Assembly: GCA_016716235.1 (NCBI GenBank) | Contig: JADJWS010000002.1 | Location: 74,904-138,903, forward strand | Direction of reading: 5' to 3' | Origin: Candidatus Defluviilinea gracilis | GTDB taxonomy: Bacteria > Chloroflexota > Anaerolineae > Anaerolineales > Villigracilaceae | Length of the DNA: 64,000 bases | In this document: piece by piece, positions 45,241 through 56,292 of the stretch | Layout of the letters: each line of letters begins with the position of its first letter | How positions within the stretch are numbered: position 1 is the first letter of the stretch | Translations under genes and position numbers: made by a program | Notes under the pieces: generated by a model | Told to the model about the DNA's origin: nothing | Seen by the model: the letters and a program-made list of their open reading frames with translations, nothing else | Database searches by the model: none

Positions 45241-47514
45241 TTACCCCAGTTGCAATTTCACTTCATTCCCCATCACAACTGTTTTTTCGCCGCTATCGAA
45301 AACGCCTAGAGGCAGGATCACGTGGAATTGACTGCCGGGGAAATTTTCCTCATCGTAGCCTTTGCTCTCCACCCAGATGCGCCCGCCATGCGCCTCGACA
45401 ATGCCTTTGGATAATGCCAATCCCAGCCCGGCGCCGCTCCCTTTGAAGCGCGACTTGCTCGTGGAATGTTTGAGCAGTTCGCCGGGTTGATAAAACTTGC
45501 TGAAAATGATCTCGCGCGAATCGGGATCTACGCCCACGCCGGTGTCGCTGACCACGATCTCGAGTCCGCCGTTGGGCATGTCTGCCGTACTGGGGGAGAT
45601 TTGCCGCGCCTCGATGTTGATCTTCCCTTGATCTGGCGTGAATTTGATGGCATTAGTCAGCAGGTGCTGAAAAAGCTTGAGCAGAAGGTTTGGGTCTGCC
45701 TTGACCATGGGCAGGTTGGGAATGTCCAGTGTCAGTGTTTGTTCGCGTTCCTTGAGCGATTTTTCGGAGCCGTTCACCACGTTGCGGATCAAATCGCCGG
45801 TATCCACCGAAGTGAGGTGGAGTTGCAGAGTGCGCGAGTCGATTTGCGCGATATCGAACATCGAGTCCATGATCTCGTGCAGGCGTTTCGTGCCTTTGGA
45901 AATATTTTTCAACATGGAATGGCTGGGCAAAGGCAGGGAGGTATCTTCGAGCAGCATTTCGGTGTAGCCGATGATCGTTGTCAGCGGGGTGCGGAGTTCG
46001 TGCGAGGCGATGCTGATGAAATCGGATTTGGTCTGGTCGAGGCGCTCGAGGTCGCGGTTGGCTTTATCGAGGTTGCGATATGCCTGCCGCAGTTCGGTGT
46101 TGACCACCACCAGGTTATCGACGAGACGGGCGTTTTCGAGCGCCACCGCCGTCTGGTTCGATAACGCCGAAAGGGTGACGAGGTCTTCTTCCGTATAGCG
46201 CGTGCCGCTGATCTTTGCGCCGAGGGCAAACAGCCCGATCCACTCGCGCTTGGAAAAGATCGGGAGATACACCTCCGCTTCGAGATGATTGAACCATTCC
46301 CGCTCGGGCTGAGAAACCGACCGAAAAGCCGGGAGCAGGTCCAAGTCGTATTGAAGAAGCGGGCGGCCCTCCACCACGAGGTATTTCGTCACCGGGTGTT
46401 CGCTTCCCAGTGTGGTGATCCGAATCTGCCGCTCGCCCTTGTTGCGGACGGCTCGCAGGCGGTAATTCTTCTCGCCGTTCGGCGTGATATCGGGATCTAC
46501 AAGAAAGAGGAAGCCGCGCGAAATGTCCATCGCCTCGATGATGAGCCCCACGGCGACATTGGCGAGCCTCTGCATATCGAGGATGTTGCTGATCTGTTCG
46601 CTGTAGGCGTGGAGCGTGCGGCTGGCGTCGTATTCCTGCAAGTTGAACCAGTTGTTGACGAGCCGCCGCACGCTGGTCAGCAACGGGGTGAAGATCAACG
46701 CCAACACAAGCGCGATCCCCGCGCCGACGACGAGCGGGTTGTAATTCGGCAGAGCATTGAACACCGATTGCGAGGCAGTCGCGCCAGCGACATAAAAGAT
46801 CAGGATCACCAACGTGGTGATAACGTACGTAAGCACCCGCCGCGCAACATTCCGCAAGTCTGGCGGATCGTGGGTAACAATGATGAGCGCGCCGAGCATA
46901 GCCGCGCACAAACGCGCCGGGTTGCCGGGTATGGGCATCCCGAAAAACAGCAAACCATCGTTGAGCGCAATCAGCAGAAACGCCGGCGTCCAGTAATTCA
47001 GGCGGTTGCGGAGCAGGGGCTGGCGCGAGCGGTCATGCGCAATACGCACAACCACAAAAGCCCCAGCAGTAAATACCAACCAGCCATACCCTGCCCAGAT
47101 CGACGCGAGCCGGTCGAAGGTGACAACGAGCGCGCCGTTCGTCCAAACCACTTCGCCGAAACGGAACAGGTTGAAGAGGATGGCAAAAAAGCCAAGCAGC
47201 CAGACGCCTCCCACGATCAGCCAGTTGCGAGAATTCCGTCGCACAAAATACAGGATGGCGATCAGGGCAATGAAGGAAAGGATGAATGCGCCGAACGCCT
47301 GCAGGTCGATTGCGCTCCGTTCGCCGAGCGCCAATTGCCCCCCGCGTATCAGTCCCTCTACAACGGTCAGGAGCAGGTTGATGATAACGTATACCGAAAA
47401 GAATACGGCGGCGGTCTCTTGCCCGGCGCGCTTGCGTAACAACAACGAAAGCACAGGCAGGTGCAATGCCGCTGCGATCATCAATAAGACCATCTCGAAA
47501 ATTTGGGGTGACAT
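45241..47514 (-). CDS. Membrane sensor histidine kinase (multi-TM N-terminus, GAF-like, HisKA, HATPase)
   Basis: About 8 N-terminal TM helices, H-box SIASHELRTPL, G-boxes DTGVGV and GSGAGLGLA. Confidence 0.85.
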   Translation of the reverse strand: MSPQIFEMVLLMIAAALHLPVLSLLLRKRAGQETAAVFFSVYVIINLLLTVVEGLIRGGQLALGERSAIDLQAFGAFILSFIALIAILYFVRRNSRNWLIVGGVWLLGFFAILFNLFRFGEVVWTNGALVVTFDRLASIWAGYGWLVFTAGAFVVVRIAHDRSRQPLLRNRLNYWTPAFLLIALNDGLLFFGMPIPGNPARLCAAMLGALIIVTHDPPDLRNVARRVLTYVITTLVILIFYVAGATASQSVFNALPNYNPLVVGAGIALVLALIFTPLLTSVRRLVNNWFNLQEYDASRTLHAYSEQISNILDMQRLANVAVGLIIEAMDISRGFLFLVDPDITPNGEKNYRLRAVRNKGERQIRITTLGSEHPVTKYLVVEGRPLLQYDLDLLPAFRSVSQPEREWFNHLEAEVYLPIFSKREWIGLFALGAKISGTRYTEEDLVTLSALSNQTAVALENARLVDNLVVVNTELRQAYRNLDKANRDLERLDQTKSDFISIASHELRTPLTTIIGYTEMLLEDTSLPLPSHSMLKNISKGTKRLHEIMDSMFDIAQIDSRTLQLHLTSVDTGDLIRNVVNGSEKSLKEREQTLTLDIPNLPMVKADPNLLLKLFQHLLTNAIKFTPDQGKINIEARQISPSTADMPNGGLEIVVSDTGVGVDPDSREIIFSKFYQPGELLKHSTSKSRFKGSGAGLGLALSKGIVEAHGGRIWVESKGYDEENFPGSQFHVILPLGVFDSGEKTVVMGNEVKLQLG

Positions 47515-47561
47515 TGAGCAAAAGTATACTCGAAATCATTTTTCGAGGTTATCATTGCCCC

Positions 47562-50423
47562 ATGCGCCTAACAAAACTGTCGCGTGATCATTATCATTTT
47601 TCATCGGATTTCTTCCGCGACGACGGCCGCGTCCACTTTGGGGATTTCTCCTCCGCGCGGAAGTTTGCGGCGCAGGCAACAGCGCTTCGTTCGGACCCTC
47701 TGCCTGCTTCAGACCTTTATGCTTTATCCCTCATTGACGAGGCTTTGCGCGCCCTCGTGAAGCGGTTCGCCCCTCCGCCGGTGATGAACACAGCGGTCAA
47801 CTCTGCGAGCGAGCAAGTCGGTGAGGATTCAATTGACCGCACGCAAAAAAAATTCGTCGCAGAGTTTCCGCCTGAAAGCGTGTATCTCGGCGAGCAACAA
47901 GTTGATGACTATCTCGCCAAACTCACGAACGGACGAGTCAAGTCGGTCGAAGAGTTGATCTACGTCTTCACGCACAACGCCAACCCGGCAGTGAGTCCCA
48001 TGCTCGAACTCGTGGACGATGCTCCGCTTGAACCGACCGCTTACAAGAATCTGATCGCCGCGCTCGATTCGTTCTTTGCCCAAATTGTAAAAGATAACGC
48101 GAATATTCCAGGCTCGACCGAATCGTTGTTTGAAATCCTGCGCGCGCCTGCCGAAGCCTTCCCTGATTCGCTTGAAGGGCAGTTGCAGTTCATCCTCGAA
48201 AAGTGGGGCGGACTACTCGGCGACGAGTTTGTCTCTCGTCTCTTGCGCGGCATGGACTTTTTACGCGAAGAGACTCTCCGTCATCACCTCGCTCACGGCG
48301 ATTTCAAAGCGGATATCCCCGTCGCAACCTATTCGGGCGGCGACTATGCCGAATACGAAAGATACAGTCCCGACAAAGACTGGATGCCGCGATTAATCCT
48401 CATCGCGAAAAATTCCTATGTGTGGCTCGAACAACTCTCGCGCAAGTATGGTCGCTGGATAAAAACTCTCGACCAAATCCCCGATGAAGAACTCGACATT
48501 CTCCGTGATCGCGGCTTCACGGGTTTGTGGCTCATCGGTCTGTGGGCACGGAGCCGCGCCAGTCAACGAATCAAACAACGCATGGGCGATGCGGACGCAG
48601 TCGCTTCGGCGTATTCACTTTATTCGTATGATATTGCCGAAGACCTCGGAGGCTGGGGAGCATTGGAGAATTTGCGAACTCGCGCGTGGCAGAGAGGTAT
48701 TCGCCTGTCCGCCGATATGGTCCCCAATCACATGGGCATCGACTCGAAGTGGGTGAGCGAGCATCCCGATTGGTTCCTGTCGCTTCCGTATTCGCCATAT
48801 CCTTCGTATTCGTTCAAATCCGAAAATTTGTCCGACGATATTCGCGTGGGAATTTATCTCGAAGATCATTACTACAACAAGACCGATGCGGCGGTCGTCT
48901 TTCAACGCCGCGACCATTTTACGGGCGACGTGCGTTACATCTATCACGGCAACGACGGCACGTCCTTTCCGTGGAACGACACAGCGCAACTCGATTACAC
49001 CAAAGCCGAAGTGCGCGAGGCGATCATCCAAACCATTTTGCATGTGGCGCGCAATTTTCCCGTCATCCGTTTCGACGCGGCGATGACGTTGGCGAAGAAA
49101 CACATTCAACGATTATGGTTCCCCGAACCCGGCTCAGGCGGCGCGATCCCCTCACGGGCAGAGCGAGGCATGACGAGGTCCGAATTTGACGCGTTGATCC
49201 CGCAGGAGTTTTGGCGCGAGGTCGTGGACCGTGTCGCGGCGGAAGTCCCAGACACGCTACTCCTCGCCGAAGCGTTTTGGCTGCTCGAGGGATATTTCGT
49301 CCGCACGCTGGGGATGCACCGCGTGTACAACTCCGCGTTCATGCACATGCTGCGCGACGAAGACAACGCCAAATATCGCGCCGCGATCAAGAACACGCTG
49401 GAGTTCGACCCGCAAATTCTCAAGCGGTACGTCAACTTCATGAACAACCCCGATGAAAAAACCGCCATCGAACAATTCGGCGACGGCGATAAATATTTTG
49501 GGATCGCAACTGTGCTGTCCACGTTGCCTGGCTTGCCGATGTTCGGGCACGGACAGGTTGAAGGCTTCCGCGAAAAATATGGGATGGAGTTTCGCAAACC
49601 GAAATGGGATGAGACACCGAATGACGCGCTCATCGCTGGTCACGATTGGAAGATCTTCCCGCTTCTTCACCGCCGCTATCTGTTCGCCGACGTGGAAAAT
49701 TTCTTCCTCTTCGACCTCTTCACCGCCAGCGGTCACGTGGACGAAAATGTTTTTGCCTACTCAAACATATTTCAAGATGAACGCGGACTCGTCCTCTATC
49801 ACAACCGCTTCGCCGACACCAAAGGCTGGATCAAAACCTGCGCCGCCTATCTCGATAAGTCTACTGGCGACTTGCGCCAAAAATCTTTAGCCGAAGCGCT
49901 GGGACTTCCATTCGAAGGCTACGTTATTTTCAAAGATTACGTTACACACTTGGAATACATCCGCTCATGTGAAGAACTTTGGAGCAAGGGACTGTACGTT
50001 GAACTGCACGCGTACCAGCATCACGTGTTTATGGATTTTCAGTTCGTGGAAAGTGGCGAGTGGAAAGTGATTTGCGACGCGTTGAATGGCGCGGGCGTGG
50101 AGTCTATGTCCGCGAAGTGGGAGGAGATGTTTGGCGTGAAGGATGAAGGTGGAAGGATGAAGGATGAAGAAAGAGGAAAGAAGAAAGAATCCGCGAAGGT
50201 GAAGAAACCGAGGAAGAAAGTAGAGAATGGAAAGAAGGCGAAAGCTAGTAAGACTAAATCCGCCGCGAAAAAGTTAGTGAAGAAAAAGGCGGTTGTCAAG
50301 AAGAAGCTTGTGGCGAAGAAGGCTATGGCGAAGAAATCTTCTGCGAAGGCGAGTAAGTCAACGCCGAAATCAGTGAAACAGGTTCTGAAGAAAGCAGTGA
50401 AGAAAAAATCAAAGAGTAAATAA
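47562..50423 (+). CDS. Alpha-amylase-family (GH13-like) glycoside hydrolase with a Lys/Ala-rich histone H1-like C-terminal tail
   Basis: GH13-like regions VPNHMG, IRFDAAM, LLAEAFW and FMNNPDE. The last ~95 aa are KKxAxK-rich. ATG 47562 was chosen; the track ORF starts at 47466, inside the neighbouring gene. Confidence 0.7.
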   Translation: MRLTKLSRDHYHFSSDFFRDDGRVHFGDFSSARKFAAQATALRSDPLPASDLYALSLIDEALRALVKRFAPPPVMNTAVNSASEQVGEDSIDRTQKKFVAEFPPESVYLGEQQVDDYLAKLTNGRVKSVEELIYVFTHNANPAVSPMLELVDDAPLEPTAYKNLIAALDSFFAQIVKDNANIPGSTESLFEILRAPAEAFPDSLEGQLQFILEKWGGLLGDEFVSRLLRGMDFLREETLRHHLAHGDFKADIPVATYSGGDYAEYERYSPDKDWMPRLILIAKNSYVWLEQLSRKYGRWIKTLDQIPDEELDILRDRGFTGLWLIGLWARSRASQRIKQRMGDADAVASAYSLYSYDIAEDLGGWGALENLRTRAWQRGIRLSADMVPNHMGIDSKWVSEHPDWFLSLPYSPYPSYSFKSENLSDDIRVGIYLEDHYYNKTDAAVVFQRRDHFTGDVRYIYHGNDGTSFPWNDTAQLDYTKAEVREAIIQTILHVARNFPVIRFDAAMTLAKKHIQRLWFPEPGSGGAIPSRAERGMTRSEFDALIPQEFWREVVDRVAAEVPDTLLLAEAFWLLEGYFVRTLGMHRVYNSAFMHMLRDEDNAKYRAAIKNTLEFDPQILKRYVNFMNNPDEKTAIEQFGDGDKYFGIATVLSTLPGLPMFGHGQVEGFREKYGMEFRKPKWDETPNDALIAGHDWKIFPLLHRRYLFADVENFFLFDLFTASGHVDENVFAYSNIFQDERGLVLYHNRFADTKGWIKTCAAYLDKSTGDLRQKSLAEALGLPFEGYVIFKDYVTHLEYIRSCEELWSKGLYVELHAYQHHVFMDFQFVESGEWKVICDALNGAGVESMSAKWEEMFGVKDEGGRMKDEERGKKKESAKVKKPRKKVENGKKAKASKTKSAAKKLVKKKAVVKKKLVAKKAMAKKSSAKASKSTPKSVKQVLKKAVKKKSKSK

Positions 50424-50432
50424 CTCTGCGTG

Positions 50433-50780
50433 TTACAGCGGCAGAAATACAACTTGATTTTTCAAATCTTCCGTTTCCCCACTTTTGGCGATAATTTCAA
50501 GGTCATGGATACAAAGTCCTATCGTCACCCTCAATTGATGCCCATAAATCACGCCTGAAAATTCAATCCCCTCCCGTTGACATTTCGCCGCCTCTGTTAG
50601 CAAGTCGTCGTCTTGTGTGAATAAGACCCGCCCCAATTCGTTTACTCGTTTCAGTAATTCATCATCGTCGAGTTGGTCGGCGCCATCCTCATGCGCCGTA
50701 ACCACATCTACGCCCCGCAAACGCAAACCAACCGTGATCGCTATTGGAACATGGTGATCCATGTATAGCGACACAGTCAT
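50433..50780 (-). CDS. DUF5615 (PIN-like) putative toxin
   Basis: MDHHVPIAITVGLRLRGVDVV... is typical of DUF5615. 1-nt overlap with the upstream DUF433 gene. Confidence 0.65.
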   Translation of the reverse strand: MTVSLYMDHHVPIAITVGLRLRGVDVVTAHEDGADQLDDDELLKRVNELGRVLFTQDDDLLTEAAKCQREGIEFSGVIYGHQLRVTIGLCIHDLEIIAKSGETEDLKNQVVFLPL

Positions 50781-51091
50781 TAGATCAGCCCTTTGTCCTT
50801 CAGTCGTTTAATTAATGGCGAGGCGGGAGTTGATTTCTGAACTTTGTCAACTTTTTCGATTCGCTTTTCAATGTCGCCATCCAATTCGTCGCGATGATCC
50901 CAATAATACGCGAGCGCGGAATAGATCTGCCCCAGCGTCAATTGCGGGAACTGGATGTGCAATTCCTCCGCGCTCCAGCCATATGCTGCCTGCGCAAGGA
51001 CGAGTTCCACCACCTTCATTGTTGTCCCTGAAATGAGAGGCACACGTGAGTCGCTCAAAACTACATGCTCGTAACGGGTTTCTGCTAACAT
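50780..51091 (-). CDS. DUF433 putative antitoxin
   Basis: DUF433 pattern (PLISGTTMKVVELVLAQAAYGWSAEELHIQFPQLTLGQIYSALAYY). ATG 51091 has an AGGAG SD. Confidence 0.65.
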   Translation of the reverse strand: MLAETRYEHVVLSDSRVPLISGTTMKVVELVLAQAAYGWSAEELHIQFPQLTLGQIYSALAYYWDHRDELDGDIEKRIEKVDKVQKSTPASPLIKRLKDKGLI

Positions 51092-51159
51092 GGCTAACTC
51101 CTGCCCCAATCATACACGATTTTTAGTGAACAGCTCTCTTCCTTTGATCCGTACGCATG

Positions 51160-51229
51160 CGGTCAATTGCGCCAGACCGGGGTCGGTGTATTCCGTGTTG
51201 CCGATGATGAGTGCGAATTTTCCGCTCAA
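51160..51229 (-). pseudogene. 5' remnant (about 24 codons) of a third caspase paralogue
   Basis: The reverse complement reads TTG-SGKFALIIGNTEYTDPGLAQLTA, nearly identical in DNA to the start of the caspase gene at 52960, then diverges. It lies 24 nt after the upstream stop, the same spacing as between the two intact caspase genes. Confidence 0.7.
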
Positions 51230-51253: not shown

Positions 51254-52960
51254 TCATTTCAGGTTTCTAAAAGTAATTTCCTTGTAATTATCAAGGGTGA
51301 TGATACCTTGATTTGCCTGCACATAAAAAATCCAGTCCGACTCAATCCATGTCGAGTCTTTTTCCTCTCGAAGAAATAGAATATCCGATGGGTTAGCTGG
51401 ATCCCAAACAGCCACAACAAACTGCGCATCTGTTATAATTGCCATTAATAGCGAATACCCCGTATCTGCATTGAGCGAAATATTCCCTGACAGAGGGGTA
51501 CTTTGAATGAGTTGATCCCCATCATACTCGTTTGTCAGAATAGAGTTGTCGCCGATGAAAATGCCAAACCGTCTGTACGATTCGTTGCCAAAATCGCCCT
51601 GCTCGAAAAACGCTTCAAAAAGCGCATCGTTTGTATATTTGAAATCAACGATAATTCCCTCGCCGTCCTTAAAGTTCTTTTTCCGAGAAACCCCGTCCCA
51701 GTTTTCAGTGCCGATGATTTCCAATACACCGTTGTTAATTGCTCCACCGGAAAAAGTTGAACCCGTTACAAGAGGATTATCAAAACCATCAAAATATGAA
51801 ACTTCTGAATTAATCAAGGATTCCAAGAGGTGGGGGTATGCTGGAAAATTTTGGATGATAGGACTTACGACCGCGGTAGGTGTTTGAAAATTTCCTTCGC
51901 TAGGAATGGGTGTGACGGAAACCGAGTCTGTGCTCGTTTGGGGTGGGGATGCAAATAATGAGAATATTCTATTACTGACCCAAAGCGCGCTGATTGCGAA
52001 ACCGCAAAGTATTAGGAAAATTCCTGTTGGTATTACCCATGACTTGCTTGATGTTGATTTTTTGGATGATAAGCGGAGAGATTCAGATTCGCTAATTCTT
52101 GATTCAAGTTCCTCTTTCTCCTGTAACAATTTTTCCTGCCTGCTCTGTATCATTTTCAATCGTTCATGATGCAGGACTCGAAGTTCTTCGGTCCGTGTCT
52201 TTTTGTCGCCAACGGGAACATATTGCCGAAGAATGATTTCACCTTGTTCCTTGTATGACCATTTTCCCGGTGTCTGTTTTGTGGTTATGTTGAGAACTTG
52301 CTCATAAGCAAAATCGTACAATTCGTCAACAGTGATGTTCCCGTCGCGGTTTCTGTCGGCTTCGCCTTCAAGCCCCCGGATAAGAAAATGGGTGAACAGC
52401 GAATTTTCCGTTTCGCCGATGGCCTTGTCTCCTTCCCATGCGAACTGGGTGGAGTCGCTAGCTGTCAAAACTACACGACCATACCCATTCCCTTCAAAAG
52501 CGGATGATGTCCCAATACTTGCGCCGGTAGCTGCTTTTGTCCCTTGTTGGAACGCGCCGCTATTGCAGCAGTCAAGGATGAGTACTTGCCGTTTGGAACG
52601 ACTTTGGTCCATGGACTCTCGTACATAGTCTGATTTAATCGCCGTAGATCTCAAACGAGAACGATTTGTATTTTTTACCGCAAGATACAACGAACCATAC
52701 TCGTCTCGTACGCCATGACCTGAAAAATATAGCACAAGCAAATCATCTGGTCTTTTAAGATAATAGAGACTGTCAATCGCTTCACGGATTGCAGACTCTG
52801 TTTGATTGAATAAAACATTGACTTCATCGAATTTACAAAGACTTTTGTCCTTCAACACGCGCGCAAAATCCTCCGTGTCCTTGCCCGGCGCGGTCAGTTG
52901 CGCCAGACCGGGGTCGGTATATTCCGTGTTGCCGATGATGAGGGCGAATTTTCCGCTCAT
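51254..52960 (-). CDS. Caspase-fold (peptidase C14) protease - EF-hand - coiled coil - single TM - extracytoplasmic beta-rich domain
   Basis: His in YFSGHG, Cys in LDCCNSG, canonical EF loop DRNRDGNITVDE, TM WVIPTGIFLILCGFAISALWV. The C-terminal ~230 aa has no recognised family. The 3' half is ~37% GC. Confidence 0.8.
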   Translation of the reverse strand: MSGKFALIIGNTEYTDPGLAQLTAPGKDTEDFARVLKDKSLCKFDEVNVLFNQTESAIREAIDSLYYLKRPDDLLVLYFSGHGVRDEYGSLYLAVKNTNRSRLRSTAIKSDYVRESMDQSRSKRQVLILDCCNSGAFQQGTKAATGASIGTSSAFEGNGYGRVVLTASDSTQFAWEGDKAIGETENSLFTHFLIRGLEGEADRNRDGNITVDELYDFAYEQVLNITTKQTPGKWSYKEQGEIILRQYVPVGDKKTRTEELRVLHHERLKMIQSRQEKLLQEKEELESRISESESLRLSSKKSTSSKSWVIPTGIFLILCGFAISALWVSNRIFSLFASPPQTSTDSVSVTPIPSEGNFQTPTAVVSPIIQNFPAYPHLLESLINSEVSYFDGFDNPLVTGSTFSGGAINNGVLEIIGTENWDGVSRKKNFKDGEGIIVDFKYTNDALFEAFFEQGDFGNESYRRFGIFIGDNSILTNEYDGDQLIQSTPLSGNISLNADTGYSLLMAIITDAQFVVAVWDPANPSDILFLREEKDSTWIESDWIFYVQANQGIITLDNYKEITFRNLK

Positions 52961-52984
52961 GGGTTCCTCAGGGCAAATATTTCA

Positions 52985-55117
52985 TTACTTGATTACTTTT
53001 AGCCAATACAAAATTCTAGAAAGTAAAGCGCCTGCTGGAAGGCCGTACACACCTCCAAATGCAAGCAAGTCATATGGCAAAGATCCTTCTTGACTCTTGG
53101 CAATACCTACAACAATGAAACCGCCGATCATCAATGGGATAGTCCATCTGTGTGGAAACGCTATTAATCCAGCCAGACCGCAAGCGACTAACAAGATAAT
53201 GTGTGGAACATCTAAATAAAAGGTGGAATATGCGTAGGCAAAGTTGTAGGTGGTTTCATTGACTATCCCGTATATTATTCCGAACAATATTCCAAGGATT
53301 AATCCAACCAGTACGCCTAGTAGGCTTCGTCCCTTCCATGAAAGAAGAAATACCTTGTGTTTCTCTATGAATTCAGCGATGGTCCATTTGCCTGCGAACT
53401 CTTCTTGTGCTGTTTCTTTAGGTGCTTTTAGAAGTTGCCGACCCAAAACGTAACCGCCGATTGCGCCCGAAATTGCCCAGGCGAGTCCCCATCCAGCCGC
53501 TTTGCCGATGTAATAATTGAACAAAAACCCATCAGCATAATAAATCCACTTACCGATTGTCCAGCCGACCGCGCTTGAAATTGCCCAGAACAATATCAAC
53601 CACAGCATGTCTTTCCAACGCGAGCGTAATTTTTCAATACCAAGCGTGCCCGCCAACGCGATCAGAATCCCGATCGTATCTCCAACTACCGCAATGGGCG
53701 CCGCCGTGATCATGCTCGTATCTGCCCAACCGATTATCCCGCCGATGACCCAGATAAAAGTTACCAGATAAATATTTTTCTCGCTGGGAAGGATATCTCG
53801 GGCTCGCAGGATAATTGTAGTTACGTAGCCACCGATCCCCCAACTGACGATACCGACCAATGGCGTGCTGAATTCGTCCACTGCCCAGAAAACTGTCCTA
53901 CTAATCGCCCCGGCAACGACCCAGCCCAAAGTGATCCATAAGATCGCTTGCTGATTCGAAATGGATGAGTTTATTATCTCAGGCTCAGGCTTCGAAAGTT
54001 CTTTCTTGGCATCAAGGATTCGTGCCACTGATGGTTTGACTTTTTCCTTCTCCAGACGTTCCGCTTCCATGACGCGTTTGTGGATGACGTTCTGCGCCTC
54101 TTCCGTTATTCTGTCTGATTCTTCATCTTTGGCTTTTTTCTCGCCCTCGCGCACGGACTCCAACGCCCCCGCCGCCGCACGCTGGACTTGACGGCTGTCA
54201 TCCTCTTCGGCGATTCTTTCCAACGCCTCTCGCGCGGATCGTGCCAGCCCAAGATTTTTTCCGTTCAATAATTTCGTCAGTTGTTGCACCGCGCCGAGAC
54301 GAATATCTGAAAATGGATTCTCAATCGAGTCCAACAGGGGAGTGGGCAACGGCACCGACTTGATCTCTTCGACGGATATATTTTGGCGAAGAATGATCTC
54401 GCCCTGTTGCTTGCTCGAAAACTTCGACGGGGTTTGTTTCGGTGTCGCATGTTTTACTTTTTCATACGCGTAATCGTACAACTCATCAACAGTGATTCTT
54501 CCATCGCCGTCTATATCTGCTTCGCCTTCGAGTCCCTCGACGAGGAAGTGAGTGAAAAGCGAGTTGTCCGTCTCACCAATGACTCTATCGCCTTCCCATG
54601 CGAATTGAGTCGAGTCGCTGGCGGTGAGAATGATGCGACCATATCCGCCCTCGAACGCGGTTGCCGTGCCAACGCTCACGCCCGTCGCGGCTTTTGTCCC
54701 TTGCTGGAACGCGCCGCTGTTGCAACAATCCAAAACGAGGACTTGCCGCCTCGACCGCGATTGATCCATCACCTCGCGGATGTAGTCAGACTTGATCGCC
54801 GTTGATCTCAATCGTGAACGGATCGTATTTTTGACCGCCAGATACAACGAACCAAGTTCATCTCGCACACCGTGACCCGAAAAATACAAAACGAGTAAAT
54901 CATCGGGTTTCTTTTGGTCGAAGAATTCGTCAATCGCTTCGATAATGGAAGAGGAAACCTGATTCAGCAAAACTTTTACATCGTCAAACTCGCAGAGACC
55001 TTTGTCCTTCAACACGCGCGCAAAATCTTCCGCGTCCTTGCCGGGCGCGGTGAGTTGAGCCAACCCCGGGTCGGCGTAGTCCGTGTTGCCGATGACCAAG
55101 GCGTATTTGGCGCTCAT
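52985..55117 (-). CDS. Caspase-fold (peptidase C14) protease - EF-hand - HEAT-like repeats - polytopic (about 10 TM) membrane domain
   Basis: His in YFSGHG, Cys in LDCCNSG, canonical EF loop DIDGDGRITVDE, HEAT-like RLGAVQQLTKLL...REALERIAEEDD, then a Gly/Trp-rich multi-TM C-terminal half. Confidence 0.8.
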   Translation of the reverse strand: MSAKYALVIGNTDYADPGLAQLTAPGKDAEDFARVLKDKGLCEFDDVKVLLNQVSSSIIEAIDEFFDQKKPDDLLVLYFSGHGVRDELGSLYLAVKNTIRSRLRSTAIKSDYIREVMDQSRSRRQVLVLDCCNSGAFQQGTKAATGVSVGTATAFEGGYGRIILTASDSTQFAWEGDRVIGETDNSLFTHFLVEGLEGEADIDGDGRITVDELYDYAYEKVKHATPKQTPSKFSSKQQGEIILRQNISVEEIKSVPLPTPLLDSIENPFSDIRLGAVQQLTKLLNGKNLGLARSAREALERIAEEDDSRQVQRAAAGALESVREGEKKAKDEESDRITEEAQNVIHKRVMEAERLEKEKVKPSVARILDAKKELSKPEPEIINSSISNQQAILWITLGWVVAGAISRTVFWAVDEFSTPLVGIVSWGIGGYVTTIILRARDILPSEKNIYLVTFIWVIGGIIGWADTSMITAAPIAVVGDTIGILIALAGTLGIEKLRSRWKDMLWLILFWAISSAVGWTIGKWIYYADGFLFNYYIGKAAGWGLAWAISGAIGGYVLGRQLLKAPKETAQEEFAGKWTIAEFIEKHKVFLLSWKGRSLLGVLVGLILGILFGIIYGIVNETTYNFAYAYSTFYLDVPHIILLVACGLAGLIAFPHRWTIPLMIGGFIVVGIAKSQEGSLPYDLLAFGGVYGLPAGALLSRILYWLKVIK

Positions 55118-55482
55118 TTTTTCTTGCTTTTCTTTTGGAACGTGGAGAGAAACTTATCGAATTCTTCGGGCGAGCCTTCGAACTCAAACCCCTTGCCCTT
55201 GAACTTCACCGTGCGACCCTGTCCGCGCATGACCCAGGCTTGCACCATCGCGATCAGACTCGGCGCGGCGGCGGGCAACACTTCCAGCGCCAACATGCCG
55301 ACGGTCACCAAATCGCCTTTGGTTCCCTTCGGGGCGGCTCCCGAGGAGACTAAATCTGCCGACAGTGCGTCACTTCCCCTCAATTCGTTCAGCAAATTTC
55401 GGGTGATTTCGTCGAGGTCTTCTTCGCTTATATTCTTCGCGCCGACTTCGATCTCAAATTTGATTGGCTGGTCAGTCGTCAT
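55114..55482 (-). CDS. Small EACC1-like protein (effector-associated constant component-like)
   Basis: 122 aa from ATG 55482 (AGGTGGAG SD). Acidic helix (EEDLDEITRNLLNELRG), P-x-G-x-K-G, a hydrophobic helix (LVTVGMLALEVLPAAAPSLIAMVQAWVMR), and a basic beta segment (RTVKFKGKGFEFEG). Its stop overlaps the caspase ATG (ATGA at 55114-55117). Confidence 0.5.
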   Translation of the reverse strand: MTTDQPIKFEIEVGAKNISEEDLDEITRNLLNELRGSDALSADLVSSGAAPKGTKGDLVTVGMLALEVLPAAAPSLIAMVQAWVMRGQGRTVKFKGKGFEFEGSPEEFDKFLSTFQKKSKKK

Positions 55483-55608
55483 ATGGGCTCCACCTGTAAG
55501 CTTGAATTCCGACACCGATGCTCCAATTATAGGCTAAAATCCATTAATTGAAACACTCAAATTTTGGTAAGGTTGTTCAGAGGAGCAGGCAAGCAAAGAG
55601 AATATTCG

Positions 55609-55890
55609 ATGTACAAGCAACTTCCTAAATTCAAGAACGAGGAAGAAGAGCGCCGATTTTGGGCTAAAAATGATTCCAGCGATCTGATCGATTGGAAGAA
55701 GGCTCAACGCGCCGTTTTCCCCAATCTGAAGCCCACCTTGAAATCTATTTCTTTGCGCCTGCCCGAATCGATGATCGCTGAACTGCGCCAACTGGCGAAT
55801 GAACGCGACGTGCCATATCAATCATTGATCAAGCATTTTCTTCGGGAAAGCATCAATAACGAATATTCGGTGAAGAGACCGAAAGCATAA
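55609..55890 (+). CDS. BrnA/CopG-like antitoxin family protein (no cognate toxin gene adjacent)
   Basis: MYKQLPKFKNEEEERRFW...ISLRLPESMIAELRQLANERDVPYQSLIKHFL is a typical BrnA-type RHH antitoxin pattern. Confidence 0.6.
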   Translation: MYKQLPKFKNEEEERRFWAKNDSSDLIDWKKAQRAVFPNLKPTLKSISLRLPESMIAELRQLANERDVPYQSLIKHFLRESINNEYSVKRPKA

Positions 55891-55908: not shown

Positions 55909-56292
55909 TTACCCTACTTCGGGGCGAGGCGGATAGTTCGGCGATTCGCGGCGGAACTCGTAATTTTCCATCACGGCTTCGATGATGCGTTTCTGTTCGT
56001 CGGTCACAAGCTCGAACTCAAACCCGATGTTGAAGAATTCAGGGCTGAGGTCTTGTTGGCACCACGCAACGCGGACCGGCAAAGCCATGCGCGTGGCAGA
56101 GACATTCGGCAATTCGGGTAGTTGGATCGAGGCGGTCAATTTTGTGTCCAGCGGCATTGGCTCGTCGCCGATCACCATTGCCCCCAGCAGGTTCAGGTCG
56201 CCGAGGTAGCCGATGAGCCTGCCTTCGTATAGATCGAAGACCTGCGAATACGACATCAAATTCTTGCGCGGTTGTTTGCGTCTCTCTTGCAT
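55909..56292 (-). CDS. PilZ domain protein (c-di-GMP receptor-like)
   Basis: RxxxR in RKQPRK and a D-x-N-x-x-G variant in GDLNLLGA. Confidence 0.6.
   Translation of the reverse strand: MQERRKQPRKNLMSYSQVFDLYEGRLIGYLGDLNLLGAMVIGDEPMPLDTKLTASIQLPELPNVSATRMALPVRVAWCQQDLSPEFFNIGFEFELVTDEQKRIIEAVMENYEFRRESPNYPPRPEVG

Follow-up and report, generated by a model that had tools for sequence, protein, structure and literature searches.

The three minus-strand genes analysed here are a chromosomal copy of the EACC1-caspase system for cell suicide or defence in the Anaerolineales (Chloroflexota), and thus a member of a system that has already been described. Specific to this locus are the sharing of one EACC1 gene between two presumed sensor caspases (A and B), the orphan ectodomain of caspase B, and 70-nt repeats around caspase B. 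System 4 of Kaur et al. 2020 (PMC7159879) was defined as an NTPase-free pair of genes for EACC1 and a caspase with a variable C-terminus. Caspase-dependent cleavage of EACC1 was later reported to yield a toxic C-terminal fragment that forms pores and causes liposome leakage (Evans et al. 2025, preprint, bioRxiv 10.1101/2025.11.14.688446). On account of these two studies, two statements of the initial annotation had to be abandoned, namely that the lack of a STAND/AAA NTPase or EAD would be unusual for EACC1, and that the combination of proteins was experimentally uncharacterised. By homology to the system of Evans et al. 2025, we consider it likely, with a probability of about 70%, that the locus represents this two-gene conflict system with one EACC1 and two paralogous caspases, and that it would operate by a protease-to-pore mechanism.

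The ORF listing for the window, i.e. the whole 64,000-nt stretch of DNA that was analysed, placed the three minus-strand reading frames at 55114-55515 (133 aa, GTG start), 52985-55117 (710 aa) and 51254-52960 (568 aa). Since the 307 homologues found for the small protein are mostly 122 aa long, and since a Shine-Dalgarno-like GGTGGAG motif is located 5-11 nt upstream of the ATG at 55482, the start of the small gene was set to this ATG. Direct inspection of the sequence bore out the annotated ATGA overlap between the small gene stop and the caspase A start (55114-55117), as well as the 24-nt gap between the caspase genes (52961-52984). The same gene order was observed on an ENA metagenome contig with an exact caspase A match, which may be the window's own source. 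The GC content declines along the locus from 53.9% in the small gene, via 52.4% in the protease domain of caspase A and 48.1% in its remainder, to 47.4% and 41.9% in the corresponding parts of caspase B, the window average being 52.6%. The previously noted GC gradient is therefore real, but a drop from 60% to 37% was an overstatement. Likewise, the neighbouring toxin-antitoxin-type genes (a DUF433 and DUF5615/PIN-like pair and a CopG-family antitoxin) are present as annotated, but the term 'defence island' is too strong because the three-gene locus is flanked by conserved housekeeping genes.

Table 1. Features of the EACC1-caspase locus (positions in the window).
Feature	Position	Strand	Basis or remark
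EACC1-family small protein, 122 aa	55114..55482	-	predicted autoinhibited pore-forming pro-toxin
Flexible loop, residues 46-60, with P51-x-G-x-K55-G-D57; predicted caspase cleavage site	55303..55347	-	
Hydrophobic segment, residues 58-86; predicted core of toxic C-terminal fragment	55225..55311	-	hydropathy scan
Caspase A, 710 aa	52985..55117	-	NCBIfam NF047832, Pfam Peptidase_C14
EF-hand-like loop of caspase A, DIDGDGRITVDE, residues 201-212	54482..54517	-	canonical ligand positions
Polytopic membrane region of caspase A, residues 388-705; presumed sensor module	53003..53956	-	hydropathy and AF2 helices
Caspase B, 568 aa	51254..52960	-	NCBIfam NF047832
EF-hand-like loop of caspase B, DRNRDGNITVDE, residues 202-213	52322..52357	-	pattern match
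Orphan C-terminal domain of caspase B, residues 334-568, predicted extracytoplasmic	51257..51961	-	TM prediction
70-nt direct repeat (caspase 5' end)	52890..52959	-	partner copy 51159-51228
Third caspase gene remnant, 24 codons, start codon mutated to TTG	51158..51229	-	tblastn match to caspase residues 1-24

Even at E<=10, the small protein itself matched neither the Pfam EACC1 model nor any NCBIfam model. A profile built from its family, on the other hand, retrieved 1503 cluster representatives, and 22 of the 120 representatives examined matched Pfam PF19953 (EACC1) independently, with a best E-value of 3.5e-8 and near full-length coverage; one of these (P0225) exceeded the gathering cut-off. 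Judged by this transitive profile evidence, the small protein is a divergent member of the EACC1 family, as the initial annotation had proposed from its layout. The annotated P-x-G-x-K-G motif is present at P51 to G56, and in its extended form, up to D57, it is invariant across the alignment of the subfamily. G53 and K55 are conserved to at least 90% in the broad alignment, where no residue is more widely conserved than K55. In the AF2 model (pLDDT 80.6) the protein adopts a ferredoxin-like alpha/beta fold of ∼120 aa, in which the only low-confidence loop (pLDDT <50 at residues 52-56) coincides with the invariant motif, while the hydrophobic segment is folded into the soluble alpha/beta domain. 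At the centre of this segment lies a patch of small residues, LPAAAPS, which fits the description of EACC1 by Kaur et al. 2020.

Both caspases scored above the cut-off of 140 bits for NCBIfam NF047832 ("caspase, EACC1-associated type"), with 166 bits for caspase A and 162.5 bits for caspase B, and caspase A was also matched by Pfam Peptidase_C14 (1.2e-22). The His/Cys dyad (SGHG and DCCNSG) is retained in the two proteins alike. They are 76% identical across the first 255 aa and unrelated beyond this point, in agreement with the initial view of divergent, membrane-associated C-termini. Caspase A consists of an N-terminal, presumably cytoplasmic caspase domain, the EF-hand-like loop, HEAT-like helical repeats, a long helix and a C-terminal region with ∼10-11 TM helices predicted from hydropathy and AF2. 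Its full-length orthologues share 54-86% identity with it, and the polytopic region, for which no Pfam family was found even at E<=10, is kept in orthologues at the related loci L006 (68%), L008 (66%), L001 (49%) and L020 (44%). In caspase B, the caspase domain and EF-like loop are followed by a charged helical linker, a single predicted TM segment (residues 307-333) and 235 aa that are predicted to reside outside the cell. This last domain had no Pfam match at E<=10, and its sole match among 5.8 billion proteins was a 99%-identical fragment encoded by the window itself; the C-terminal part of caspase B resembles other caspases weakly, and in the linker region only.

The closest solved structures are the MALT1 paracaspase and metacaspases. 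By sequence profile the best PDB matches were MALT1 (3.8e-7) and AtMC4 (1e-3), and a Foldseek search with the AF2 model of caspase A likewise matched MALT1 (5.6e-6). Common to these proteins are the caspase-hemoglobinase fold, the His-Cys dyad and a metacaspase-like D-x-C-x-S-G motif, whereas identity amounts to only 16-18% in structural alignments and the context here is bacterial and membrane-anchored. Furthermore, a metacaspase-type p10 Ca2+ site was not identified in the caspases of this locus, in which the last two helices are joined by the EF-hand-like loop instead.

The annotated canonical 12-residue loops are indeed present in both caspases: that of caspase A has canonical ligands at positions 1, 3, 5, 6, 8, 9 and 12, and that of caspase B fits the pattern D-x-[DN]-x-D-G-x-I-x-x-x-E. 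The loop is, however, not a peculiarity of the locus but is found throughout this caspase family: its pattern is conserved in 120 of the 120 best homologues, and three distant caspases linked to EACC1 likewise have a canonical loop. A metal ion is probably bound by this conserved loop. One could go further and consider the locus a calcium-gated suicide module, in which Ca2+ bound by the loop, for example upon influx through a damaged membrane, would switch on the protease, with the membrane domains as sensor or pore. In addition to the loop's conservation, this idea gains from the AF2 model, in which the loop of caspase A is placed in a helix-loop-helix (helices 188-199 and 210-224), from the best, albeit weak, PDB sequence matches of the loop, namely obelin, calmodulin and calerythrin (E 0.1-0.9), all of them genuine EF-hand proteins, and from the established Ca2+ activation of eukaryotic metacaspases, as stated in PMC9626678. 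Yet the Pfam EF-hand models scored only 13-17 bits, below their gathering scores of 25-28, the EF-hand is single and unpaired, and its conservation would fit a purely structural metal site equally well. Moreover, neither Kaur et al. 2020 nor Evans et al. 2025 mention calcium or an EF-like loop, and KrAvs12, the EACC1-linked caspase protein of Ktedonobacter racemifer, cuts EACC1 in a Mg2+/ATP buffer for which Ca2+ is not listed (Evans et al. 2025), although this protein lacks the canonical loop and carries NGDVHSRNNLSL in its place. On balance, we regard calcium gating as unlikely.

The coupling of the small gene to caspases proved to be conserved. Of the ∼30 distinct related loci whose sequence downstream of the small gene could be read, nearly all have one or two caspase genes with highly variable C-termini immediately 3' of the small gene, frequently with a start that overlaps the small-gene stop by 4 nt, and in the distant EACC1 relatives L035, L039 and L043 a caspase is likewise encoded directly after EACC1. 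The C-terminal types among the relatives include polytopic TM, WD40, PD40, FGE-sulfatase and SurA/rotamase domains. By their annotation, nearly all relatives belong to MAGs of the Anaerolineales or of other Chloroflexota, and a search of viral contigs found none; the Anaerolineae are typically filamentous. The variability of the C-termini is the pattern given for System 4, which was described as prevalent among actinobacteria, with sporadic occurrence in proteobacteria, and in which at least 33% of the caspases carry TM helices, versions with TM and extracellular domains being explicitly noted (Kaur et al. 2020). Our locus agrees with System 4 in its 5' EACC1 gene, its N-terminal caspase domains, its TM-bearing C-termini, one of them with a domain predicted to lie outside the cell, its independence of an NTPase and its occurrence in multicellular bacteria. 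It differs in that its EACC1 is part of a divergent subfamily from the Chloroflexota, that two caspases are encoded in tandem per single EACC1 gene, and that their C-terminal modules belong to no recognised family.

The locus has also been subject to turnover. The body of caspase B is enclosed by the two copies of the 70-nt repeat, which are 96% identical, and the truncated third copy that had been annotated is indeed present as a remnant. In the relative L008, caspase A is followed by the same 24-codon remnant alone, an arrangement equal to that of the window less the stretch flanked by the repeats. In the relative L011, only this remnant comes after EACC1. The number of caspases at the same site varies among relatives from 0 to 1 or 2. 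Such rapid turnover, together with an orphan ectodomain and remnants, suits conflict systems, and it speaks against the view that the locus is not primarily anti-phage but a programmed-cell-death or envelope-stress circuit, in which the same protease-to-pore chemistry would respond to endogenous or extracellular cues and sacrifice damaged cells of a filament. This view draws on the strong association of EACC1 systems with multicellularity (650 of 671 organisms; Kaur et al. 2020), matched here by the affiliation of the relatives, on the chromosomal, syntenic position, which is among housekeeping genes and not within a mobile island, on sensors predicted to face the envelope or exterior, and on the stress-response roles raised for DnaK fusions by Evans et al. 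2025. It appears decidedly doubtful, however, in the light of the FGE-sulfatase-type domains in relatives and the reported fusions to DGR-type diversifying modules, while the sole tested homologue, KrAvs12, is triggered by phage proteins, namely tail-connector proteins (Evans et al. 2025).

The original model of Kaur et al. 2020, in which a membrane-inserted EACC1 sensor activates the caspase and auto-processing releases a variable C-terminal effector (here the polytopic region of caspase A as a pore), would accommodate the conserved hydrophobic segment with its small-residue patch, the high variability of the C-terminal domains, which is often seen in conflict-system effectors, and the multi-TM C-termini "that might form membrane pores" of the analogous EACC2 systems (Kaur & Aravind), but it is highly improbable since the C-terminal fragment of EACC1 is toxic by itself and permeabilises liposomes, caspase-fused domains such as Avs are sensors (Evans et al. 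2025), the hydrophobic segment is part of a folded soluble domain in the AF2 model, and the C-terminal domains of relatives (WD40, PD40, FGE-sulfatase, SurA) are typical ligand-binding modules rather than toxins. The pore-like role that had initially been assigned to a caspase C-terminus more probably belongs to EACC1 itself.

What the analysis itself establishes is the family membership of the proteins, the linkage of the genes, the anatomy of the domains and the turnover at this site; cleavage, pore formation, sensing by the C-termini, the membrane topology and the kind of trigger are inferred. According to the protease-to-pore mechanism that we favour, EACC1 would be produced as an alpha/beta monomer that is soluble and autoinhibited. 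Both caspases would be anchored in the membrane with a cytoplasmic protease domain, and their variable C-terminal modules, the polytopic domain of caspase A and the single TM helix plus orphan domain of caspase B, would serve as sensors. An envelope signal, such as phage attack or membrane perturbation, would activate the protease, which would then cut EACC1 in its exposed loop at the PxGxKGD motif. The freed hydrophobic C-terminal fragment of ∼62-67 aa would oligomerise into membrane pores and thereby cause cell death (abortive infection or altruistic death). The exact P1 residue would lie within the loop: a metacaspase-like D-x-C motif would suit a basic P1 (cf. K55), and Evans et al. 2025 propose an Asp. 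Their putative cut site in KrEACC1, Asp49, was paired with T60 of the small protein in a collinear but weak hhalign alignment (E 1.6e-3, probability 16%), in which G62, W83 and R86 paired with G51, W73 and R76 of KrEACC1 and a "V-K-F-K" strand was also matched.

The K. racemifer system, likewise from the Chloroflexota, resembles our locus in having a small EACC1 gene upstream of a caspase-domain protein, and the His/Cys region of KrAvs12 is homologous to that of the locus caspases (hhalign E 2.7e-6). The two EACC1 proteins are only marginally similar in sequence, but the hydrophobic core and the following basic strand align and the predicted fragments are of similar size (∼6 kDa and ∼7 kDa). 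For EACC1, Evans et al. 2025 modelled the N-terminal fragment in a sheet with two C-terminal strands. In contrast to the NTPase-free membrane proteins described here, KrAvs12 is a soluble STAND/Avs ATPase fusion. Since it is cytoplasmic and lacks TM helices as well as the EF-like loop, transfer of the mechanism to membrane-anchored caspases is an extrapolation. The logic would be that of bacterial gasdermins with their proteases, or of mammalian caspase-gasdermin pairs, where an autoinhibitory part is cut off and a small protein oligomerises into pores, an analogy drawn by Evans et al. 2025. The small protein is nevertheless unrelated to gasdermin in sequence and modelled fold, and in EACC1 the toxic part is the C-terminal one. 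If both caspases indeed act on the single EACC1, the locus would connect two sensors to one effector and would thus constitute an OR gate.

The three genes of the locus lie on the minus strand and encode the 122-aa small protein, caspase A (710 aa) and caspase B (568 aa). The tight arrangement claimed for them in the initial annotation could be read directly in the sequence: the stop codon of the small gene overlaps the start codon of caspase A in an ATGA at 55114-55117, and 24 nt separate the caspase A stop from the caspase B start. The start of the small gene was chosen on the ground that nearly all of 307 homologues are 122 aa long, and a ribosome-binding-like GGTGGAG motif lies upstream of its ATG. 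The claimed fall in GC content was found as a gradient, from 53.9% in the small gene through 52.4% in the caspase domain and 48.1% in the rest of caspase A to 47.4% and 41.9% in the corresponding parts of caspase B, against a window mean of 52.6%; its size was smaller than had been stated. A scan for promoters and terminators revealed nothing exceeding shuffled expectation. Divergent from the operon lies a gene of the CopG/BrnA antitoxin family (Pfam, 1.7e-31) with no space for a partner toxin upstream of it. This gene was found in the related locus L007 and was missing in the related loci L008 and L001; it may encode a local regulator or else an orphan antitoxin. Just upstream of the EACC1 module, a stand-alone PilZ-domain protein, syntenic in L001, is a possible c-di-GMP receptor.

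Coordinates of the operon and of neighbouring features in the window
Feature	Position	Strand	Remark
Alpha-amylase-family gene	47466-50423	+	histone-H1-like tail at ~50040-50423
DUF433 and DUF5615/PIN-like pair	50433-51109	-	109 aa and 115 aa; 1-nt overlap
Third-caspase remnant	51158-51229		24 codons; start codon mutated to TTG
Caspase B ORF	51254-52960	-	N-terminal caspase domain
Caspase A ORF	52985-55117	-	N-terminal caspase domain
HEAT-like helical segment of caspase A	54128-54355	-	~75-110 aa; directly C-terminal to caspase domain
Small-protein ORF	55114-55515	-	start = ATG at 55482; 122 aa
CopG/BrnA-family antitoxin gene	55564-55890	+	
PilZ-domain protein	55909-56292	-	

Searched directly, the small protein matched nothing in Pfam, NCBIfam or PADLOC, even with relaxed thresholds (PF19953, the Pfam EACC1 family, was not matched at E<=10), and no precomputed Pfam domains were present among its 120 best homologues. 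When 1.84 billion representatives were searched with a profile built from its subfamily alignment, 1503 proteins were retrieved at E<=1e-3, including 369 at E<=1e-10. We re-scanned 119 of the 150 best profile matches, all 150 of which lay at E<=5e-16, together with the window protein. In this set of 120 sequences, PF19953 was matched independently by 22, with a best E of 3.5e-8, and one protein from the profile search, P0225, reached 24.2 bits against a gathering cut-off of 23.6 while covering profile positions 25-106 of 107. Since some of the matches of its profile themselves match PF19953, we assign the small protein, on profile evidence, to a divergent EACC1 subfamily beyond the direct reach of the curated models. 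The initial annotation was correct in seeing EACC1 in the 122-aa product, as judged from the PF19953-matching relatives that the family profile retrieves. Other proteins carry EACC1-like domains fused to TIR_2 (N- or C-terminal, E 1e-11 to 1e-20) or to a CHAT protease (E 1e-9 to 1e-11), and two carry one fused to EAD7; such fusion proteins include P0121, P0130, P0131, P0237 and P0270.

An AF2 model of the small protein, built on the broader alignment of 120 sequences (pLDDT 80.6, pTM 0.70), predicted the elements β1 (7-15), α1 (20-35), β2 (41-45), a disordered loop (46-60), β3 (61-68), α2 (73-86), β4 (90-96), β5 (99-103) and α3 (105-120). The sole low-confidence stretch, residues 52-56, coincides with the invariant P-x-G-x-K-G-D motif. 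According to Kaur et al. 2020 (PMC7159879), EACC1 has a single conserved segment that is hydrophobic and TM-like, carries a patch of small residues at its centre and is flanked by short alpha and beta elements. Indeed, a hydrophobic segment spans residues 58-86 of the small protein, with LPAAAPS as its central small-residue patch, and the AF2 order is beta-alpha-beta, loop, beta-alpha-beta-beta-alpha. Furthermore, KrEACC1, the Ktedonobacter racemifer protein whose sequence is given in the supplement of Evans et al. 2025 (bioRxiv 10.1101/2025.11.14.688446), gave a weak but collinear hhalign alignment with the family (E 1.6e-3), in which its residues G51, W73 and R76 pair with G62, W83 and R86 of the window protein. 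Its putative cut site, Asp49, aligns to T60, three residues past the invariant D57. A Foldseek search of the PDB with the small-protein model found no solved EACC1 relative; the structural relatives returned were generic ferredoxin-like folds only (E>=6e-3, TM<=0.52) and were discarded.

Both large proteins start with a Peptidase_C14 domain (Pfam, 1e-22 and 1e-20) and scored 166.4 and 162.5 bits to NCBIfam NF047832 ("caspase, EACC1-associated type"), above the curated cut-off of 140. The motifs SGHG and DCCNSG are kept in both; across the alignment H82 and C131 do not vary, and conservation of C132 is at least 90%. The caspase/C14 domains with an intact His/Cys dyad that had been proposed are therefore present in both proteins. 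A sequence search of the PDB with full-length caspase A returned no match; the nearest solved structures were the MALT1 paracaspase and metacaspase-4 by sequence profile, and MALT1 (5.6e-6) and caspase-3 by fold. Caspases A and B share 76% identity across 255 aa and are unrelated beyond that point, which bears out the divergence claimed for them past the protease domain.

From its N-terminus onward, the AF2 model of caspase A (pLDDT 69) comprises the caspase fold, a helix-loop-helix at 188-224, three short helices within 259-305, one long helix (309-359), a linker modelled as disordered and some 10-11 membrane helices within 388-705, the last also apparent from hydropathy. The polytopic module matched no Pfam family. 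Because its identity among orthologues is 44-68%, as compared with 94-96% for the adjoining protease domain among the closest relatives (L006-L008), the C-terminus of caspase A is taken to evolve faster than its protease domain. The short helices (259-265, 270-284 and 289-305) lie in a HEAT-like segment; caspase A scored 18.5 bits to Pfam HEAT_2, below the cut-off of 27.7, and that family was matched at E<=1e-3 in 7 of 33 relatives. This segment, which caspase B lacks, is common to nearly all relatives, including the distant locus L035, and may serve as a constant adaptor linking protease and sensor. Caspase B has a single predicted TM segment (307-333), and since a Lys-rich stretch precedes it, the predicted topology is N-in, C-out, which would place 235 aa outside the cell. 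When this ectodomain (334-568) was searched against 5.8 billion proteins, the one match was a 99%-identical fragment, the window's own protein, and no Pfam family was found at E<=10, so that at the sequence level the ectodomain is an orphan.

A genome-collection scan with the subfamily alignment yielded 29 loci, nearly all in MAGs annotated as Anaerolineales or other Chloroflexota, and further loci were added by contig look-ups. A caspase gene lies immediately 3′ of the small gene in nearly every one of the ~30 related loci whose downstream sequence could be read, the exceptions being the decayed loci described below. Distant EACC1 relatives of other lineages are also found directly upstream of caspases, so that conservation of the gene neighbourhood, a check suggested in the initial annotation, was observed. 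One EACC1 gene with two caspase genes also occurs in the related loci L001, L006, L007, L021 and L034, and L020 has a full caspase and a remnant. Two further loci carry larger arrays, namely three complete EACC1-caspase modules in tandem (L023, 1254-9030) and two EACC1 genes with three caspase starts (L024, 638-6238); since the C-terminus of each caspase differs, what is repeated is the whole module, and the caspases do not share one EACC1. At least one TM segment was predicted in 27 of 35 caspases, and the C-termini of the relatives comprise polytopic TM modules, WD40 and PD40 propellers, FGE-sulfatase, HEAT-like repeats and SurA/rotamase. A scan of viral contigs for the EACC1 subfamily found no relatives, and a phage origin was rejected.

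An EACC1 gene located 5′ of a gene for an N-terminal caspase with a variable C-terminus, an order kept across genomes, corresponds exactly to "System 4" of Kaur et al. 2020 (PMC7159879), in which a 5′ EACC1 gene is followed by a 3′ gene for a caspase whose C-terminal domain comes in ~50 alternatives. TM helices occur in at least 33% of System 4 caspases and extracellular domains in some, and an NTPase is unnecessary (PMC7159879). The STAND/AAA ternary conflict systems (vWA-MoxR, iSTAND and others) possess an NTPase and an EAD adaptor, whereas neither domain was found in the three operon proteins or their immediate neighbours. The initial annotation regarded the missing NTPase as unusual, but System 4 needs none. 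We conclude that the locus is an EACC1-caspase system, with a probability of about 0.9.

Nor does the view that such a combination had not been characterised experimentally hold. Evans et al. 2025 (bioRxiv 10.1101/2025.11.14.688446) showed that KrAvs12, the caspase partner of KrEACC1, cuts EACC1 to fragments of 5.7 kDa and 7.1 kDa, that toxicity resides in the C-terminal fragment only, and that cleaved EACC1 permeabilises liposomes. At the present locus, the membrane C-termini of the caspases would sense an envelope-level signal, upon which the cytoplasmic caspase domains would cut EACC1 within the 46-60 loop; the freed fragment of ~62-67 aa would form pores, and one effector would be common to two sensors. 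The anatomy of the small protein fits this, as a disordered and exposed loop bearing an invariant motif immediately precedes the hydrophobic segment. We consider cleavage to a pore probable at this locus, with less confidence than its assignment to the EACC1-caspase systems.

The chromosomal site shows turnover among the relatives. The truncated third caspase copy reported previously was recovered as a short remnant (table), within which a 70-nt repeat (51159-51228) is 96% identical to the 5′ end of caspase B. In L008, EACC1 and caspase A are followed by the 70-nt remnant of a caspase gene, then by DUF433, DUF5615 and the amylase gene; taking the segment between the two 70-nt direct repeats out of the window would leave this same arrangement. 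The second caspase of L007 is a different one, polytopic and 634 aa long. The protease domain of caspase B shares at most 76% identity with any sampled relative and has a lower GC content. On the simplest reading, whole caspase cassettes have been gained or lost by recombination at the conserved 5′ end. An assembly artefact, in which the tandem caspases would be spurious, is unlikely given relatives with one or two caspases and clean junctions; the identical gene order is also present on an ENA metagenome contig with an exact match to caspase A, although the window may itself derive from that contig. Two decayed loci occupy the same site: L011 (6953-7440) retains only EACC1 and a 5′ caspase remnant, and in L016 (1580-3165) a truncated EACC1 adjoins an IS200-like Y1 transposase.

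The site is flanked by PilZ, PIG-L, GreA and LysRS genes on one side and by the alpha-amylase-family and histidine kinase genes on the other, with synteny in L001, L007 and L008 and, on the amylase/kinase side only, in L004. The region had been described as having the look of a defence island. We reject this description because its flanking genes (GreA, LysRS, an ECF sigma factor, a PIG-L family deacetylase, PilZ, the alpha-amylase-family protein and the histidine kinase) are housekeeping genes, syntenic in relatives. The DUF433 and DUF5615/PIN-like pair, which probably forms a type II toxin-antitoxin module, separates the caspase remnant from the amylase-family gene; L007, L008 and the related locus L041 have it too. 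The amylase-family gene ends in a Lys/Ala-rich tail of ~130 aa with KKAK-type repeats and direct DNA repeats (D5-D7), and similar tails occur in the L011 and L016 orthologues.

Within the NF047832 match region of each caspase lies a 12-residue EF-hand-like loop, DIDGDGRITVDE in caspase A (201-212) and DRNRDGNITVDE in caspase B (202-213). Both fit the canonical pattern (D1, D/N3, D/N5, G6, hydrophobic 8, E12), and the loop is canonical at positions 1, 3, 5, 6, 8, 9 and 12. It is kept in 120 of the 120 best caspase homologues, with the strict pattern in 32 of 35 locus-derived caspases, and three distant EACC1-linked caspases are canonical as well (DRDSNGEISLDE, DVNGNGVITVDD and DLNSDGQITVDE). 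The loop is a fixed element of this family of caspases, not a locus-specific feature. The EF-hand proposed in the initial annotation stood up as a canonical loop flanked by helices in the AF2 model of caspase A (188-199 and 210-224). It did not do so by Pfam score, with EF-hand_1/5/6/8 reaching 11-17 bits under cut-offs of 25-28, or by pairing, as each protein has one unpaired loop.

Unlike caspases A and B and their family, KrAvs12, the single homologue for which there are experiments, lacks the loop, and calcium is not mentioned in Kaur et al. 2020 (PMC7159879) or Evans et al. 2025 (bioRxiv 10.1101/2025.11.14.688446). In a survey of prokaryotic caspase homologues, EF-hand motifs appear solely as accessory features, in 7 archaeal proteins (PMC6426788). 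Metal binding by the loop is plausible. We think it unlikely that the loop makes the membrane-anchored caspases Ca2+-activated, such that Ca2+ entering via a breached envelope or the first EACC1 pores would trigger or amplify EACC1 cleavage. Such gating would resemble that of metacaspases and calpains, which are activated by Ca2+. If it were true, the locus would represent a bacterial positive-feedback circuit from membrane damage to death, in which two differently tuned envelope sensors feed one pore-forming effector. As a lead on metal regulation in bacterial caspases, the family-wide loop can be tested at little cost.

This locus leaves the accepted view of the EACC1-caspase system as it was; its points of note are the dual sensors, the visible cassette turnover, the unexplored EF-hand-like loop and the annotation gap for EACC1 in Chloroflexota. 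Anaerolineales and other Chloroflexota commonly carry the EACC1-caspase death module, and since current Pfam and NCBIfam models miss the subfamily, its EACC1 proteins are annotated there only as "hypothetical protein", a gap that is concrete. Across the relatives, zero, one or two membrane sensor caspases are found at the same site, with domains apparently swapped at the conserved 70-nt 5′ segment, and this series could be used for studying the exchange of sensor modules on a constant protease-effector core.
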